64,000 bases of DNA, taken from NCBI GenBank assembly GCA_003599195.1, contig QZIZ01000019.1, positions 14,188 through 78,187 on the forward strand, read 5' to 3'. This document shows positions 1 through 11,412 of this stretch, piece after piece. Position 1 is the first letter of the stretch, and each line of letters starts with the position of its first letter. The translations under genes and the position numbers were made by a program. The notes below the pieces were generated by a model. That model searched no databases and was not told the origin of the DNA. It worked only from the letters and a program-made list of their open reading frames with translations. The DNA is from Deltaproteobacteria bacterium (GTDB lineage: Bacteria > Desulfobacterota > Desulfobaccia > Desulfobaccales > 0-14-0-80-60-11).

Positions 1-531
1 AAGAGCGAAACCGGCATCCACCGCCTGGTGCGCATCTCTCCTTTCGACGCCTCCGGCCGCCGCCACACCTCTTTTGCCGCAGTGCAGGTGCTGCCGGAAG
101 TGGACGACCGCATCGACGTCGACATCCAGGAAAAGGACCTGCGCATCGACACCTTCCGGGCCAGCGGCCCGGGGGGCCAGCACGTGAACAAGACCAGCTC
201 CGCGGTGCGTCTGACCCATATTCCCACGGGCATTGTGGTCTCATCCCAATCCGAGCGTTCCCAGCACCGCAACAAGGAACTGGCCATGAAGGTGCTCCGG
301 GCCCGGCTCTACAACCTGGAACAACGCAAGCGGGAGGAAAAAAAGCAGGAACTCCAGGAGTCCCAGAAAGAGATCGCCTGGGGCAGCCAGATCCGCTCCT
401 ATACCCTGCAGCCCTACCGCCTGGTGAAAGACCACCGCACCAAGCACGAGGCCGGCAACGTGGACGCGGTCCTGGACGGCGACCTGGACGGTTTTGTGGA
501 GGCCTTCCTCCTCAATCCGGAAGGAAATTAA
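1..531 (+). CDS. prfB: Peptide chain release factor 2, C-terminal part (5' end outside window)
   Basis: SPF stop-recognition motif (RISPFD), GGQ motif ([11 protein letters not shown]), WGSQIRSY. Confidence 0.95.
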
Positions 532-602: not shown

Positions 603-1226
603 ATGCTCTATAATCGCTGCTCCGAAGTGGATGAGAATTTCTGGCGGGACCTGGCCCAGGCCGATCCGGAGGATATCCTCCAGCGCACTGGAGTTCGCCG
701 CAACCACAATGCCTTGCACATCCCTTATTTCAACCGGGAACTGGTGGTGGATCAGGAACAGCGGCGCATCTTTCTGGCGGACGCGCCCGCGGATGAACCG
801 GGCTTTCGCCGCTGCCTGATCACCCTTCTGTACCTGCTTCTGATAGATAAATCGGCTCTGGGACCGCCCGTCAGCCCCCTGGAATTGCCCGGGGCCACCA
901 TGTTCTTCCAACAGAGCGGGCCTCACGCGATTCCCAGCGCCCCTTTGGAAGAGCGGTTCGGCCGGGACTTACCTGGTTTTCTGGAAGTTGGCCGCCGCCT
1001 CGGGGCCGAGACCCGCGCTGGCGGCGACGCCGCCTTGGCCTTCCGGGTCTTTCCGGGGCTGACCGTGGAAGTGATTCTCTGGCTGGCCGACGATGAATTT
1101 CCGGCCCAGGTGTCTTTCACCGTGCCCGCGCAACTACACCGTTTTTGGCAACACGATGCGGTCTTGGGTCTTCTTGGGGTGGTGGTCAAGGAACTCTTGC
1201 AAGCAGACACGCCCGCGGCCAAGTAG
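603..1226 (+). CDS. DUF3786-like hypothetical protein
   Basis: 207 aa ORF; ELPGATMFF and LWLADDEFPA segments resemble DUF3786. Confidence 0.7.
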   Translation: MLYNRCSEVDENFWRDLAQADPEDILQRTGVRRNHNALHIPYFNRELVVDQEQRRIFLADAPADEPGFRRCLITLLYLLLIDKSALGPPVSPLELPGATMFFQQSGPHAIPSAPLEERFGRDLPGFLEVGRRLGAETRAGGDAALAFRVFPGLTVEVILWLADDEFPAQVSFTVPAQLHRFWQHDAVLGLLGVVVKELLQADTPAAK

Positions 1227-2376: not shown

Positions 2377-2442
2377 GACGGGCGGATGAAGACCCCGGCG
2401 CCGGAAAAGACCGCCCATACCACAGAGAACCGCGAGGAAGCA

Positions 2443-2751
2443 ATGCCCCTGGAAGATTATCTGCAGACGGTTGCTTTTGTAGCCAAGAGCATGTCGGATG
2501 AAAACCGGCTGCGGATTCTCTTGTGCGTCAATAACGGCAAGAAATCCGTCAACAGCATTGTGGAAGAACTGAGCCTGTCCCAGCCCCTGGTTTCCCATCA
2601 CCTGAAAGAACTGCGGCGTTCGCTGCTGGTGAAGGTGGAGCGCAGCGGCCCCTTCGTGTACTACGAGATTGCGGACCCCAGAATTCCCAAGATTCTGAAA
2701 GATTTGAAAGACCTGGCCACGGATTTGCTGGCCAGGAGAAAGACTTTTTAA
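2443..2751 (+). CDS. ArsR/SmtB family transcriptional regulator
   Basis: SDENRLRIL...LSQPLVSHHLKELR HTH; GAGGA RBS before ATG 2443 (alternative start 2386). Confidence 0.9.
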   Translation: MPLEDYLQTVAFVAKSMSDENRLRILLCVNNGKKSVNSIVEELSLSQPLVSHHLKELRRSLLVKVERSGPFVYYEIADPRIPKILKDLKDLATDLLARRKTF

Positions 2752-2772
2752 CCGGAGGAGGTGATTCATCAT

Positions 2773-3225
2773 ATGGCGGGAATTACCAAGATACTGGAGG
2801 GCATGGCCCCATCCCAAGCTTTGTCCGAAATCGGCGGGGCGCTGAAAAAAATTCTGCCTCTGGTCACCGAGGAAGATCGGCTGAACTTTGTCGTGCAGTT
2901 GCTCGGCGGCGCCGGCGACGACAAGGTGGCCAGTATGGTGCACCTCTGACTGGCGGAATGCCTGGACGAAGGTGTCGATCCAACGCATATGTGTCAAAAG
3001 CTGGTGGACCGGGTGTCGCAGTCCAAGCAGCTCATGGCCGTGGCCGATCCGGAGTTGCTGGCGCTGTTCGAGGACTGGCTGGATGAGCTGGAGGATGAAG
3101 TGATCGCCCTGGCCCGGGAGAAAGGGGGCCTCACCCCCGAAAACCTGGCCGCTAAATTCGGCCTCTCCCGGCGAGGGGCCACCTTTCTGATTACGAAATT
3201 AAAGAGAGAAGGAAAACTGTCTTAG
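2773..3225 (+). CDS. tsoA: Selenoprotein with LULAEC motif (TsoA-like), Sec at TGA 2947-2949, C-terminal HTH-like segment
   Basis: ORFs 2761-2949 and 2989-3225 are in one frame joined across TGA (H-L-U-L-A-E-C); downstream hairpin; family name recalled from NCBIfam, needs checking. Confidence 0.85.
2958..2988 (+). promoter_or_regulatory. Candidate bacterial SECIS element
   Basis: ATGC-c-TGGA-CGA-[AGGTG]-TCG-a-TCCA-ac-GCAT, loop GG at +22/23 from TGA. Confidence 0.7.
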
Positions 3226-3235
3226 AGGCATTAAG

Positions 3236-4978
3236 ATGATGACGGACAGAAAAAGAACCTTATTATTGGCTTTAATGGCTGCGGTCCTGACCCTGGGCGC
3301 GCTCTGGTATGTCCACCGCCCGGTGGCCGTCCAGGACGCCACCATGGAGGACGTCCGGGTCGAGGCCGCCAGGGGCGGCTATCGCCTGATTAATACCGAG
3401 GACTTGGCAAAGCTTTATCAACAGCCTCCCGCCAACCTGCTCATCGTGGACACCCGCCAGGATTGGGAGTACCGCAGCGGCCATATCAAAGGCGCGGTGG
3501 ATTTCCCCCTGGAACCCGGCTGGTGGTCCCGGTGGCGCTCCCAGGGCCGCCTGAAGGCCTTGCTGGGGCCGGACAAAGACCGGCTGGTAGTCTTTTACTG
3601 AGCGGGCCTGGCCTGAGTCCGCAGCGACTCCGCGGCCCGGGTGGCCGTCGACCTTGGCTATAAAAATGTTTATCGGGACCCCCTGGGTTTCCCGGAATGG
3701 CAGAAAGCCGGCCTGCCCGTGGCCGGCGATCCCTTGGGACTGTGTGATTACGCGCCGGAGGCTTACTCTCCCGGTGTCCTCTCCGGTTGGGCTTTAGTCT
3801 GGACCATGCTGGGCATCTTCTTCGGCGGTATGGCCCTCAACCTTACTCCTTGCGTCTATCCCATCATCCCCATCACCGTTTCGTACTTCGGCGGGCGCAG
3901 CGGCCAGGGCCGGGGACGCCTGGTGATCCACGGCCTCCTGTACGTGGCGGGCCTGGCCGTCACCAACTCCGCGTTGGGGGTAATTGCGGCTTTCACCGGC
4001 GGCCTCATGGGAGCCATACTGCAAAATCCCCTGGTGCTGCTGACGGTGGCCGCAGTCCTGGTCATCTTTGCCACCAGTCTTTTCGGGTTCTGGGAACTGC
4101 GCCTCCCCGGCAGCCTGACCCAGGCCGCGTCCAGGTCCTATGCCGGCTATGGCGGCAGCCTGTTCATGGGTCTGACTTTGGGAGTGGTGGCCGCGCCCTG
4201 CATCGGCCCGTTTGTGTTAGGACTCTTGACCTGGGTGGCCTCCATAGGCTCGCCCTGGCTGGGTTTCCTGGTGTTTTTCACATTGAGCCTGGGACTGGGA
4301 CTGCCCCTGTTTTTCCTGGCCATCTTCTCCGGCAGCCTGGAGAAACTGCCCCGGTCCGGGGAGTGGATGCTTTGGGTGCGGAAACTCATGGGCTGGGTGC
4401 TCATCGGCATGGCCGCCTATTTTCTGCGGCCGCTGCTTTCCGAGACCCTGAGCGTATTCCTGCTGGCCGCGGCGGCCCTGGCCGCGGCGGTGCACCTGGG
4501 ATGGCTGGACCGCACCACCGCGGCTTTCCGGAGTTTCCGGTGGCTCAAGACCGTCACCGCCTTGGCGGGAGTGGTAGCCGCCACCTTTCTGGTGGGGTCC
4601 TGGGCCTTCCGTGGTCCGGGGGTAACCTGGCAGCCTTATTCGGACCAGCTCTTAAGGACGGCGAAACATGAGAAAAAACCGGTAATTATCGACTTTTACG
4701 CCACCTGGTGCAGCCCCTGCCGGGAGCTGGAGGAAATCACCTTCCACCACCCGGAGGTGGTGAAACAGGCTGCCGCGGATTTCCTTGCGGTCAAGGTGGA
4801 CCTGACCCAGAAAGGCAACCCCTTGCACACCCGGCTGTTGGAGCAATACGGGGTCAAAGGAGTGCCCACTGTGGTTTTCCTGGATGGTCAGGGCAATGAA
4901 TGCCGGAACCTGCGCCTGGTGGATTATCTGCCGCCGGAGCAGTTCCTCTCCCGTATGGCCAAGGCCATGAAGAAATAA
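3236..4978 (+). CDS. tsoB: Rhodanese-DsbD(beta)-thioredoxin fusion selenoprotein (TsoB-like), Sec at TGA 3599-3601 and 3614-3616
   Basis: Reads VVFY-U-AGLA-U-VRSDSAARVAVDLGYKNV...GFPEWQKAGLP, completing the rhodanese fold; then LTPCVYP/APCIGP (DsbD transmembrane Cys pair) and WCSPC; 580 aa. Confidence 0.9.
3625..3650 (+). promoter_or_regulatory. Candidate SECIS downstream of the U-x4-U motif
   Basis: GCGGCC-[CGGGT]-GGCCGT stem-loop, loop at about +22 to +26 from the second TGA. Confidence 0.6.
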
Positions 4979-4997
4979 AAGCGGTTGGAGAATTGAT

Positions 4998-5279
4998 ATG
5001 CTTAAAATTAAAGCCTTGATGAACGATCCCTGCGGCCTGACCTGAAAGCGCCTCCACGAGATCATGCCCAGGTTGGGCAAGAAATACGAGTTGGAAGTGG
5101 AGGAGATTTCCCGGTCCAGGGAGGAATACCAGAGCGAAGCCTACCGGGCCGCGGGCCTGCCCCCGGCCCCCGCGGTGCTGGTGGAAGATGAAGTTGCAGG
5201 CCAGGGACCCGGCATTTCCGAAGAAGGCGTGGAAGCGGTGATCCGCCGGCATTTGGGACTGCCGCCCCTGAAGTCCTAA
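4998..5279 (+). CDS. tsoC: Thioredoxin-fold selenoprotein (TsoC-like paralog 1), NDPCGLTU motif, Sec16 at TGA 5043-5045
   Basis: GGAG RBS + ATG 4998, in frame with ORF 5064-5279; hairpin TGCCCA-GGT-TGGGCA 5065-5079; APA cis-Pro-like motif. Confidence 0.85.
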
Positions 5280-5311
5280 AAATCGCACAATCCAAAAATT
5301 GGAGGACAAGA

Positions 5312-5629
5312 ATGCTCAAAGTCAGATGCTTTTACAACGAGCCTAACGGCAAACCCTGAAAGCATTTCCAGGAAATGATGCCCAGGTTGGGCCAAAAATA
5401 TCCCATCGACATCAAAATTACTTCCAAACCCATTGCCGAATACCAAACGGATGAATATTTTGAGTTAGACCTCCCCGCGGCCCCGGCCATCATGGTGGGC
5501 GACGAGATCGTGGTGGAAGGCACGGATGTAGCCGAACTCAAATTGGAAACCGTCATCTGCCGGCATCTGGGGCTGCCCGAGCCGGAGCCGCCCAAGAAAG
5601 GCTTCCTGGGGCGGCTGTTTGGCAAATAG
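5312..5629 (+). CDS. tsoC: Thioredoxin-fold selenoprotein (TsoC-like paralog 2), NEPNGKPU motif, Sec16 at TGA 5357-5359
   Basis: GGAGG RBS + ATG 5312, in frame with ORF 5375-5629; TGA aligned with paralog; hairpin GCCCA-GGT-TGGGC 5380-5392. Confidence 0.88.
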
Positions 5630-5719
5630 ACCCGCAGGGGGTGAAGGCAGATTCGCCCCCCCAGGTTTGGAAAAGATAAGGCGCAGCGTCAGCAACCCGC
5701 TGCCGCCCAAGAGGTAGCC

Positions 5720-6418
5720 ATGCAGACGGAAAGATTCCGGCGGGGGGCCTTGATCAAGGCCGTGATCCTCATTCTGTTCGTGGCCGCCGCGGTGGTGACG
5801 GTCCGCACTCCCGCGGTCAAGGAGGCGCTGACCGCAGAAAAGCTGGGCGCCATGCTGGCGGCCGCGGGCGCCTGGGCCCCTGTGGCCTTTATTGTGTTTT
5901 ACGCCGTAGGGGTCTGCCTGTTCATCCCCGGGACTTTGCTCACCGCGCTGGGGGCCGCCATCTTCGGGGCCTATTGGGGGTTTGTCTACGTCTGGGTGGC
6001 CGCCATGCTGGGGGCCGCAGGGGCCTTTCTCATCGGCAGGTACCTGGGGCGGGAGTTCGCGGCTGCCCTCATCGGCGAGCGGCTGAAGAAGTATGACGAC
6101 GCCATCGAGCGCAACGGCTTCGCCACCGTGCTCTACTTACGGTTGGTTTATTTCCCCTTTACCCCCATGAACTTCGGCATGGGGCTGACCAAAGTGCGCT
6201 TTAAGGATTACCTCTGGGGCACGGGGCTGGGGATCTTGGCGGGCACCTTCATCTTCACCTTCTTTGTGGGCACCGTCAAGGAGGTCTGGGCCAGCGGCCA
6301 ATGGGCCAACCTCCTCACCTGGCAAGTATTTTTTTCCCTGGGACTCTTTGTTTTTTCCCTCTTTATTCCCAAGATCATCGATAAGCTGAAGGTCTGGAAA
6401 GGGATCAAGCCTGTTTAA
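5720..6418 (+). CDS. TVP38/TMEM64 (DedA superfamily) membrane protein
   Basis: PGTLLTALGAAIFG, F-x-IGRYLGR, LRLVYFPF...GLT motifs; hydrophobic. Confidence 0.9.
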   Translation: MQTERFRRGALIKAVILILFVAAAVVTVRTPAVKEALTAEKLGAMLAAAGAWAPVAFIVFYAVGVCLFIPGTLLTALGAAIFGAYWGFVYVWVAAMLGAAGAFLIGRYLGREFAAALIGERLKKYDDAIERNGFATVLYLRLVYFPFTPMNFGMGLTKVRFKDYLWGTGLGILAGTFIFTFFVGTVKEVWASGQWANLLTWQVFFSLGLFVFSLFIPKIIDKLKVWKGIKPV

Positions 6419-7041
6419 ACCTTTTCTCCGGCGATAACCACGAAAACCCCTTGGCCATGGCCGCTCTTCACCGGTTCCGGCGCCGTAATCGCCGCCGGGT
6501 CTTGAAAAATGGTCTGGCAAGTCTGAATGTTCAGATAATTCAGCTCAACCAGCCATTTCAGGACCCGGCCCACCGGCTGGAACCTCGCCTGGCGGTAAAA
6601 TTTACTCTTTTCCCGGTTGGCCTCATATAATTTCCCCAAAGGGCTCTCCGGATCGATCATGCCGATGATCAGCCGTCCTTGGGGTTTAAGGACCCGGGTC
6701 GCCTCTTCAAGAGCGCGGCCAGGGTCTTTCAGGAAGCACAGGACGGTGACCATCAGAATAAAATCAAAAGATTCATCTTTGAAAGGAAGTTCTTCCCCGT
6801 AAGCCTCGTGGACCTCGATCCCCCGTTTTCCGGCGATCTCGGCCATGGCCCGGGCGGGCTCCACCCCCACTTCGATCCCCAGGGCCGCGGCAAACCTGCC
6901 GGTCCCCACCCCGATTTCCAGCCCCCGGCCTGCTTGCGGCATAAAGGCTTTGATGGCCGCCAGTTCGGAGCGGAAGGCGATCTCATGGCGGACAAACCAA
7001 TCATCGTATTCCTGGGCCGCTTCTTCAAAAACATCGGTCAT
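6415..7041 (-). CDS. Class I SAM-dependent methyltransferase
   Basis: GLEIGVGTGRFA motif I, LPFKDESFD, RVLKPQG; start moved to 7041 (GGAGG upstream); 4-nt TTAA convergent overlap with TVP38 gene. Confidence 0.9.
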   Translation of the reverse strand: MTDVFEEAAQEYDDWFVRHEIAFRSELAAIKAFMPQAGRGLEIGVGTGRFAAALGIEVGVEPARAMAEIAGKRGIEVHEAYGEELPFKDESFDFILMVTVLCFLKDPGRALEEATRVLKPQGRLIIGMIDPESPLGKLYEANREKSKFYRQARFQPVGRVLKWLVELNYLNIQTCQTIFQDPAAITAPEPVKSGHGQGVFVVIAGEKV

Positions 7042-7073
7042 CGGAAAAACTCTCTCCTCCCTTATGAGAGCGG

Positions 7074-7580
7074 TTACTGTGACATTATAACTCCGGTAAC
7101 CAGCAATACCGCCAGCCCCAGAACTAAATTTACTTTTACCAGATTTAATGACAACTTTTGCAGCCCGGCGACCCGGGAGGATAAAGCAGGCGTCCCCTCG
7201 GCCTGGGCGGCCAATCTCCCGATTTTGGGAGCCAATAACCATCCCCGGTAAAAATGGATAACCACCATCACGAGTACCAGGAGGTGTTTCACGCCCATTA
7301 CGGGGGTCCAATGATTATAAAATTCCAGGGGATTGGCCATATCTTTGCCGTAATGGCCGAGGATCGGACCGGTGATAATCAATACTACGATACTGGCGTT
7401 AACCATGGGGGTCAAACGCCTGGTTATCTCTTTCATCAGTTTGCCGGTCAAAGGCGGTGATTCCAAAGAGGTCCTGGCCCCGGGCAGTATCACCAAAAGG
7501 ACCATAAAGATGCCGCCGATCCAGACCACGGTGGCCAATAAATGGAGAAAGTGGCTTAAACTCAAAATCAGCAAATTCAT
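7074..7580 (-). CDS. CopD/DUF4149-like four-helix membrane protein
   Basis: SHFLHLLATVVWIGG motif, 4 hydrophobic segments. Confidence 0.75.
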   Translation of the reverse strand: MNLLILSLSHFLHLLATVVWIGGIFMVLLVILPGARTSLESPPLTGKLMKEITRRLTPMVNASIVVLIITGPILGHYGKDMANPLEFYNHWTPVMGVKHLLVLVMVVIHFYRGWLLAPKIGRLAAQAEGTPALSSRVAGLQKLSLNLVKVNLVLGLAVLLVTGVIMSQ

Positions 7581-7628
7581 CGCGGGTCTCCCATACAAGG
7601 CGTCATAAGTAATTGCACATCCTGAATC

Positions 7629-7690
7629 CCTGCGCTCTCTGCTCTCTGCGTTAAAAAGATTCACCGCAGAGACGCAGAGGACGCAGAGAA
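7629..7690. repeat. Inverted CGCAGAGA-type short-repeat element
   Basis: CTCTGCTCTCTGCG ... CGCAGAGACGCAGAGGACGCAGAGA. Confidence 0.7.
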
Positions 7691-8632: not shown

Positions 8633-9037
8633 TTATTTGGATTTTTCCTTGATCCGCTGCCGCACCGCGTTCAGCTCCTCCTGGAGGTCCTTCTCATATT
8701 GTTTCAGGGCCTCCACGTCCGAACTCTCGAATTCCTGTTCCCGCCATTTCATGGTGCCCCGGCAGCCGCAACTGCAGACTTCCGTCAACTGGCGCCGGTA
8801 TTTCTCCAGGGCCTCCTCGTTAATGGAGTAGGGAATCCAGTACCCCTGCCTTTCGCTCCGCACCAGCCCGGCCTGCCGCAGGATCTTGAGATGCTGGGAG
8901 GCCGCGGCTGCGGTGATCCCCAACTGCCGGGCGATCTCCTTGGCCCCCAGGGGCCCCTGGGCCTTCATCAGATCAAGTATCCTGACCCGGGTCTCCACGG
9001 CCAGGACCTTGAACATTTCGGAGACTTCCAATTCCAT
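8633..9037 (-). CDS. ArsR family regulator with C-terminal CSCGC and coiled-coil extension
   Basis: FKVLAVETRVRIL...AASQHLKILRQAGLV HTH. Confidence 0.9.
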   Translation of the reverse strand: MELEVSEMFKVLAVETRVRILDLMKAQGPLGAKEIARQLGITAAAASQHLKILRQAGLVRSERQGYWIPYSINEEALEKYRRQLTEVCSCGCRGTMKWREQEFESSDVEALKQYEKDLQEELNAVRQRIKEKSK

Positions 9038-10557: not shown

Positions 10558-11412
10558 TTATTGCTTAGGCGCTCACGCTCCGCCCGGAGCGCACTCCACC
10601 ACTTTAGGCTCCTCCACTTGGACCGCCTGGGTGGCGATCATCGCCTGCGCCCGCGCATCCACCAGTTTTTCCCCGTAAAACATGGCCCCTTCGGTGTAGG
10701 GAGAGGTCTTGAAGCCGGTGTAGGCCCTCAGGCCCGCCCGGTGGAAGCCCGCTTTCAGCAGCAGCGCCAGGAAGTCCCTTCCCGGCAGGGCGCCGCCGAT
10801 TCACTGGTACCAGTTTTCAATCTTCCCCGCCTTATCCGGGGGGAGTTCCGCCACCAGCACCATGTCCGCCAACATGAGGCGGCCCCCGGGCTTCAGCACC
10901 CGGTGGGCCTCTAACAAAGCCTTTTCCTTGTCCAGGGTAAGGTTAAAGACGCCGTTGGAGATGACTGCGTCGAACTCGTTATCCGGGAAAGGCAGGGATT
11001 CGGCCTCCGCCAACTGAAAAGTGACATTTGTTAGGCCCAGGACAGAGAGGTTGGCTTTAGCCTTGTCTATCATGGCCTGGGTCACGTCAACGCCCGCCAC
11101 CCGGCCCTCCGGCCCCGCCATCTTCGCCGCCAGAAGCGAGTCCAGCCCCGCGCCGCAGCCGATGTCCAGGACTGCGTCCCCGGGGTGGATAGGCCCCAGG
11201 CTGAAGGGGTTGCCCACCCCGCAGAAGGAGTCGATAAGGGCGGCCGGAAAATCCCGGAGCAGGTCCAGGGGGTAACCCTGCTGCTTCAGCCCTTCCAGGC
11301 CGGTGGGGTACCTGAAGCATGAAGCCGCGCCCGCGGCCGCCACCTGGGAGTATTTGCTCTTGATGCTCTCCCGGATCAGGGTGATATCTTTTTCGGTCAG
11401 ATTAGATTCCAT
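10558..11412 (-). CDS. ArsM-like SAM methyltransferase selenoprotein; Sec204 at TGA 10803-10801; second TGA 10575-10573 is a stop or a second Sec
   Basis: SFCGVGNP, VLDIGCGAG, ISNGVFNL; read-through gives NWYQ-U-IGGALPGRDFLALLLKAGF, matching ArsM W-x-x-C-I-x-GAL; hairpin GCCGGGAAG-GGA-CTTCCTGGC with loop at +24. Confidence 0.85.

Follow-up and report, generated by a model that had tools for sequence, protein, structure and literature searches.

A tsoB gene with two closely spaced, conserved UGA codons followed by two adjacent RNA hairpins: a predicted rhodanese/DsbD-fusion double selenoprotein in a Desulfobacterota-type genome

An open reading frame (ORF) at positions 3236–4978 (+) of a 64,000-nucleotide (nt) stretch of contig QZIZ01000019.1 (positions 14,188–78,187), from the Deltaproteobacteria bacterium assembly GCA_003599195.1, was analysed together with its surroundings; the whole stretch is referred to below as the window. 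With a probability of roughly 85%, the ORF is tsoB and encodes a rhodanese/DsbD-fusion double selenoprotein within a tsoR–tsoA–tsoB–tsoC–tsoC operon of a Desulfobacterota-type genome. Running from ATG 3236 to the TAA at 4976–4978, it forms a single frame of 580 codons once TGA is read through, and the only two in-frame TGA codons lie at 3599–3601 (codon 122, UGA1) and 3614–3616 (codon 127, UGA2), both predicted to specify selenocysteine (Sec, U). The deduced protein matched the family model NF045694 (seleno_TsoB) with 1014.2 bits against a cut-off of 805, residues 8–577 aligning to profile positions 2–571, and the DNA-level search scored 1001.9 bits. Proteins of this type, double Sec included, are already described as an NCBI-curated family: a 2026 review (PMC13188914) tabulates TsoB (NF045694) with the motif UxxxxU and 2 Sec, gives the meaning of Tso as 'three selenoprotein operon' and cites Haft & Tolstoy 2025 (mSystems 10:e0141724). 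The window gene is one more member of this curated, tabulated family, and its copy shares the UxxxxU motif with 2 Sec, the domain order, the tsoR–tsoA–tsoC neighbours and a full-length match; no distinguishing feature was found in it, apart from an unusual adjacent thioredoxin reductase gene.

With TGA written as U, the translated active-site loop reads VVFY-U-AGLA-U-VRSDSAARVAVDLGYKNV...FPEW..AGLP. The rhodanese domain (residues 55–157; 3398–3706 (+)) was recognised by PF00581 (E 1.4e-13) and by PDB alignments with four solved rhodaneses (6mxv, 2hhg, 3d1p and 1qxn), in all of which U122 falls on the catalytic Cys (FY-C) and U127 on a Gly. Compared to these structures the loop contains a two-residue insertion (U-AGLA-U-VRS against CAG--GLRS), and both the alignments and the Cys homologs place the predicted Sec127 within this longer loop. 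Loop-length classes of rhodaneses are known from the general literature; the sulfurtransferase arrangement of a catalytic Cys in a C-x4-R loop is absent here, where the predicted Sec122 and U-x6-R are found instead. The rhodanese is preceded by an N-terminal signal anchor (residues 8–26; 3257–3313 (+); hydropathy peak 2.11, three Lys/Arg ahead) and followed by a DsbD membrane core (DsbD_TM, PF02683, E 1e-41; residues 189–400; 3800–4435 (+)) and a C-terminal thioredoxin-like domain recognised by Pfam (residues 464–572; 4625–4951 (+)). The core resembles DsbD (PRK00293) in its two conserved Cys in P-C motifs, Cys206 (3851–3853 (+)) and Cys322 (4199–4201 (+)), and the thioredoxin-like domain in its CxxC, W-C492-S-P-C495 (4709–4720 (+)). 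The PRK00293 score of 250.9 is below the cut-off of 330, only profile positions 168–572 being matched, and in contrast to DsbD the alpha domain is replaced by the anchored rhodanese and the third redox pair is Sec-x4-Sec. A preliminary description made from the sequence alone had proposed two in-frame TGAs in the VVFY-U-AGLA-U loop with the same downstream motif, the first at the rhodanese catalytic Cys and the second five codons on, as well as a hydrophobic anchor ahead of a rhodanese that substitutes for the DsbD alpha domain; the frame translation, the four structural alignments, the hydropathy profile and the Pfam and PRK00293 matches all agree with this account.

Topology was assessed by hydropathy and the positive-inside rule, a simple rule rather than a dedicated predictor. 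After the hydrophobic segment 8–26 and the rhodanese, eight further hydrophobic segments were found, and Lys/Arg clusters occur at the N-terminus and in the loops 212–233, 285–312, 364–383 and 423–436, with none in the alternate loops. Since the clusters alternate in this way, the charge rule shows a predicted orientation in which the N-terminus lies inside and the outer face carries both the rhodanese and the thioredoxin domain.

The family model was searched against 401 genomes of the same phylum, which resulted in 30 matches above the cut-off, in 26 of the 401 genomes. All 30 hold exactly two TGA codons; the remaining strong matches consist of the DsbD part alone and are stop-free, except for one broken copy and one single-TGA copy. 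In the 26 orthologs excised for comparison UGA1 is TGA throughout (26/26), and U122, U127, C206, C322, C492 and C495 are invariant, while no conservation was seen at C170 and C556. These comparisons show three invariant, putatively redox-active pairs: U122/U127, C206/C322 and C492/C495. The loop pattern FY-U-AG[L/F]x-U-VRSD is present in all 26 orthologs and in one stand-alone paralog of the window's own genome. The stretch 3602–3640, for which the preliminary description had asked whether conservation existed at the protein level, behaves as coding sequence: codons 123–138 are nearly invariant as protein, and the synonymous sites of codons 123–126 vary. When one genome per species was scanned for the pattern, at least 118 stretches were found, almost all from Desulfobacterota-type isolates and metagenome-assembled genomes (for example Desulfacinum infernum and Desulforhopalus) and one labelled Rokubacteria. 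Together with the earlier loci these amounted to 136 unique 126-nt sequences, 134 of which were counted after two that diverge just after the loop had been dropped. The loop motif is common to the 134 unique loci, and the presence of both TGAs there (134/134) is forced by the search pattern. The distribution as a whole shows that both UGAs are conserved and, as judged from sequence comparison, are read as sense codons. Sequencing error or a pseudogene was ruled out by the retention of both TGAs in the 30 matches and the 134 loci. A general reassignment of TGA was likewise rejected, because many orthologs and the paralog in the same genome terminate in TGA, and because the window opens with a release factor gene that has the SPF and GGQ motifs.

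Homologs with Cys at the Sec positions, alignment to which had been proposed earlier as a check, carry Cys at both TGA positions. One is a secreted rhodanese of the same genome (792–1301 of locus L002, on contig C91), in which the loop reads VFY-C-GFVK-C-TRS and aligns ungapped (40% identity, E 2e-25). In a search over 5.8 billion proteins, four full-length forms of the fusion were found among the 120 clusters listed, and two of these (P0003 and P0004) have C-x4-C. The other two, P0005 and P0006, are one full-length form with Gly and Arg at the Sec positions and one without the loop. A scan of metagenomes for the Cys pattern yielded five stretches, four of which match by chance. The fifth, L163 on a metagenome contig, is a genuine Cys/Cys gene that keeps 6/6 pairs of the second and 4/5 pairs of the first of the two RNA hairpins described below, its upstream part being interrupted by stops. 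It looks like a recent conversion and is uninformative about relaxed constraint.

The secreted rhodanese of L002 stands in a row with two other genes: a membrane protein with a weak match to the BT_3928 family (179–748) and an anchored stand-alone U-x4-U rhodanese that has both tsoB hairpins and no DsbD part (1471–1974). The double-UGA loop was recorded at 143 loci: 117 encode the fusion, four have the rhodanese alone, and in 22 the gene runs off the end of the locus. Besides L002, the rhodanese-only kind was noted at L106, L109, L119 and L143. As for the Sec machinery, selB and a selD with one in-frame TGA were found in the window's own genome, which is 81% complete; the selD product (C48:14800–15714, L161) is probably a selenoprotein itself.

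Two RNA hairpins follow UGA1 within 50 nt, numbered here from its U as 0 (window 3599). Hairpin A (3615–3630 (+)) has the stem GAGUC/GACUC and a six-base loop CGNAGY, pairs positions 16–20 with 27–31, is written GAGTC-CGCAGC-GACTC in the window DNA and includes the G and A of UGA2; its stem is fully paired in 127/134 sequences. After a 1-nt linker, hairpin B (3632–3648 (+); GCGGCC-CGGGT-GGCCGT in the DNA) pairs positions 33–38 with 44–49, with the stem GCGGCC/GGCCGU and the loop CG[G/U]GU. The folding energies for the window sequence are −4.8 kcal/mol for A alone, −9.5 kcal/mol for B alone and −15.4 kcal/mol for both. The preliminary description had recognised two hairpins and taken them to overlap each other. 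Both do exist, and the overlap was mistaken: they are adjacent and can form together, and what hairpin A (not hairpin B) overlaps is the second TGA. Its further statement, that a GG-loop hairpin stands at the usual distance from the second TGA alone, is borne out: the stem of B starts 15 nt past UGA2 and 30 nt past UGA1, compared to 13–20 nt for the other five G[G/U]-loop hairpins that follow Sec codons in the window. Counted to the loop of B, the spacing is 21 nt for UGA2 and 36 nt for UGA1. The published bacterial selenocysteine insertion sequence (SECIS) model specifies 16–37 nt from UGA to loop, a G among the first two loop bases (G[G/U]) and an energy limit of −7.5 kcal/mol. Hairpin B, with 6 bp and the loop CGGGU, meets this model for both UGAs; it fits a canonical bacterial SECIS and is a candidate for one, and a single SECIS that would serve both codons is compatible with the published model.

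The region stands out at synonymous sites. Among the 26 orthologs, the gene-wide minimum of synonymous-site entropy lies at codons 127–137 (0.56, against a median of 1.31), and the lowest window without TGA codons is 128–137 (0.67). The folding and covariation analysis was run on 27 sequences, in which the hairpin cells are paired in 99.3% of cases and two pairs of hairpin B have changed on both sides; the covariation score was reached by none of 500 shuffles, partners slid along the sequence pair in only 23–63% of cells, and RNAalifold predicted both hairpins. The larger set (n = 134) bears out the compensatory changes at the two pairs of hairpin B, with pair 35–47 occurring as GC 90, AU 30, CG 7, UA 1, GU 4 and mismatch 2, and pair 38–44 as CG 124 and UA 10. 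On a tree of 105 loci, built from flanking sequence with the hairpin columns left out, at least 15 independent changes were counted for pair 35–47 and at least four for pair 38–44. Since the two pairs change repeatedly on the tree, the covariation of hairpin B does not stem from one inherited event. The third base of the Arg135 codon, in loop B, is G in 84 and T in 50 of the 134 sequences and nothing else, which matches the G[G/U] that the bacterial SECIS model prescribes for the loop. The loop of hairpin A is free by comparison, the Arg129 codon being CGC 90, CGA 17, CGG 15, CGT 11 and AGA 1, and its stem is frozen: Val128 is GTC 130 or GTT 4 and Asp131 is GAC 132 or GAT 2, pairing being kept by both variants, and Val and Asp codons nearby use all synonyms.

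Two larger folds were considered and dropped. A closing helix around both hairpins was proposed by RNAalifold on the 27 sequences; its second pair is unpaired in 42/134, and its 5' arm would fall inside the ribosome during decoding of UGA1. A long minimum free energy (MFE) fold that pairs GGGCC with GGCCC depends on codons 123–126, which vary freely elsewhere.

Several observations weigh against the interpretation given above. No compensatory change was seen in hairpin A among the 134 sequences, its pairs being only invariant or wobble-changed, and its A-U pair is broken in 7/134. RNAalifold on the 134 sequences recovered hairpin B and not A. When single-sequence MFE folds were calculated with the ribosome-covered 5' part omitted, hairpin A appeared in 74/134 sequences and hairpin B in 48/134 (UGA1 state) and 65/134 (UGA2 state); thermodynamics alone fails to single out the two hairpins. 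At the genome level, selA and tRNA-Sec were not detected in the window's own assembly, at 81% completeness; both are present in a genome of the same genus (G300, 99% complete) and in two of the same family. The adjacent thioredoxin reductase gene (trxB, 1417–2376, upstream of the operon) is not conserved as a neighbour, being found in 4 of the 77 loci with enough upstream DNA. Finally, PMC2397514 stresses how difficult diselenides, with their very low redox potentials, are to reduce, and this casts doubt on a simple diselenide being recycled by a CxxC of the thioredoxin type.

If the TGAs were true stops, two separate genes would result, encoding a 121-residue anchored fragment and a 445-residue DsbD/CcdA-like protein starting at GTG 3641. 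Translation table 11 indeed splits the frame into ORFs 3236–3601 and 3641–4978, and 115 of the 120 protein clusters listed (P0007–P0121) are truncated calls of this kind, 350–453 amino acids long, under source names such as DsbD, CcdA or thioredoxin family; the typical public call has 445 residues and starts at the equivalent of GTG 3641. The split, however, would fall in the rhodanese catalytic loop, the amino acids encoded between and beyond the TGAs are conserved while synonymous sites vary, both TGAs are in frame in 30/30 matches above the cut-off, full-length Cys/Cys forms are known, and a covarying SECIS-type hairpin follows. Moreover, GTG 3641 falls within hairpin B itself, its G and T in the loop and its final G opening the 3' arm. 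Two genes are thus very improbable, and most public gene calls for the TsoB family would be wrong, in that they give 445-residue 'DsbD/CcdA' proteins starting inside the SECIS loop. With both UGAs taken as Sec codons, the question becomes how a pair only 15 nt apart is decoded. A tentative proposal, preferred here and prompted by the geometry and by the 'stem frozen, loop free' pattern of hairpin A, is that this hairpin may act as a collapsible spacer that keeps one SelB-binding hairpin at the same working distance for both codons. SelB bound to hairpin B would decode both UGAs: with UGA1 in the A site, hairpin A would be folded and the path to hairpin B would measure 13 nt plus 1 nt, and at decoding of UGA2 the ribosome would have melted hairpin A, leaving a path of 15 nt. 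It is rather doubtful that the hairpins form instead a tandem, with A as a non-canonical SECIS for UGA1 and B serving UGA2 only. Hairpin A does start 13 nt past UGA1 with its loop 18 nt past, in agreement with the 13–20 nt and 16–37 nt ranges, its loop (C-G-N-A-G-Y) has a G among the first two positions, and the synonymous sites of its stem are conserved; yet any base occurs third in the loop (C 90, A 18, G 15, T 11), so that G[G/U] is missing in 108/134, its energy of −4.8 kcal/mol is weaker than the model limit of −7.5 kcal/mol, and compensatory change is lacking. That hairpin B alone serves both UGAs, with A slowing the ribosome, protecting the mRNA or masking UGA2, appears unlikely. The 36 and 21 nt both fall within the 16–37 nt of the published model, and in SelL, according to PMC4989117, two UGAs at an offset of two codons share a single SECIS, but the 30 nt from UGA1 to the stem of B exceed the range of the five other window hairpins, and the near-match between the size of hairpin A (16 nt) and the offset of the UGAs (15 nt) is left without a reason. 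The TsoB family offers an uncomplicated natural example of paired Sec codons at a 15-nt offset; with more than 100 sequenced variants, decoding rules for closely spaced bacterial UGAs can be read from its synonymous sites and then tested by reporters.

The chemistry of the Sec pair can be weighed in a similar manner. In DsbD, cytoplasmic thioredoxin supplies reducing power across the membrane. By analogy, TsoB would take up electrons from cytoplasmic thioredoxin at C206/C322 and relay them via the CxxC in its outer thioredoxin domain to the Sec pair, whose substrate outside the cytoplasm would be a sulfur, selenium or metalloid species. Such a DsbD-type relay is what we infer, and the same applies to the earlier suggestion of a diselenide recycled by the DsbD/Trx domains. 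A possible alternative, to be viewed with reserve, dispenses with a diselenide/diselenol couple: the Sec pair would form a site of two selenolates with a single atom (S, Se, As, Hg or similar) bound between them, as part of a detoxification or trafficking system. The difficulty of reducing diselenides (PMC2397514) favours such a site, as do a loop two residues longer than that of sulfurtransferases, the ArsR/SmtB-type metalloregulator of the operon and, nearby, an arsenite-methyltransferase-like double selenoprotein, a second ArsR-like gene and a CopD-like membrane protein. Neither a fused metal-binding domain nor a transporter is present, though, and the invariant C206/C322 and CxxC suggest electron delivery, which would be needless for a pure chelator. 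Returning to the relay, TsoB offers a defined system in which to ask whether a DsbD-type relay can service an extracytoplasmic Sec-Sec site, a question that bears on cellular diselenide reduction.

Among other selenoproteins, SelL (Shchedrina 2007) likewise has two nearby Sec in one redox motif and, according to PMC4989117, a single SECIS for both UGAs. SelL is Prx-like, with a UxxU diselenide motif on a thioredoxin fold, whereas TsoB has U-x4-U on a rhodanese fold; the SelL UGAs are described as two codons apart and those of TsoB are four, and the available sections of PMC4989117 and PMC2397514 mention no bridging hairpin for SelL. Rhodanese-related selenoproteins, which the review (PMC13188914) tabulates as forms 1–4, share the rhodanese fold with Sec in or beside the catalytic loop (NF041203 rhodanese_LYCAU, CxU). 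They have one Sec and no DsbD fusion, and the window protein scores 34.6 against the NF041203 cut-off of 115. A search of Rfam with window 2700–5700 returned no match at E ≤ 1. Neither the collapsible-spacer device nor the two-hairpin layout was described in the literature searched, outside which lay the primary TsoB paper and its supplements, and both may be new. A description of the tsoB SECIS may already be contained in Haft & Tolstoy 2025 or Shchedrina 2007.

The remaining genes of the operon were assigned by their family models. The ArsR/SmtB-type regulator gene tsoR (2386–2751 (+)) matched NF045707 with 164 bits against a cut-off of 115, and the LULAxC selenoprotein gene tsoA (2761–3225 (+); TGA 2947–2949, motif LULAEC) matched NF045695 with 221.5 bits against 170. 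Downstream of tsoB, two copies of the NEPxGxxU selenoprotein gene tsoC matched NF045708 (cut-off 45), copy 1 (4998–5279 (+); TGA 5043–5045) with 112.9 bits and copy 2 (5312–5629 (+); TGA 5357–5359) with 147.9 bits. Both tsoC copies have the hairpin GCCCA-GGU-UGGGC, 19–20 nt past the TGA. Among the loci with room for the neighbours, the fusion gene co-occurs with TsoA in 65/94, with TsoR in 68/94 and with TsoC in 79/94.

A VTT/DedA-type membrane protein is encoded downstream of the operon (5720–6418), and the flanks also contain a CopD/DUF4149-like membrane protein (7074–7664 (−)), a class I methyltransferase (6415–7311 (−)) and a DUF3786 protein (603–1226 (+)). The release factor gene at the window start is represented by its 3' part (1–531 (+)), with the SPF and GGQ motifs, and is one that we take to encode RF2. 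The second ArsR-like regulator (8633–9037 (−)) was recognised from its translation only. The arsenite-methyltransferase-like double selenoprotein also lies near the operon, and at 10558–11412 (−) the second TGA stands four codons ahead of the stop, with a strong GC hairpin in the 3' untranslated part.

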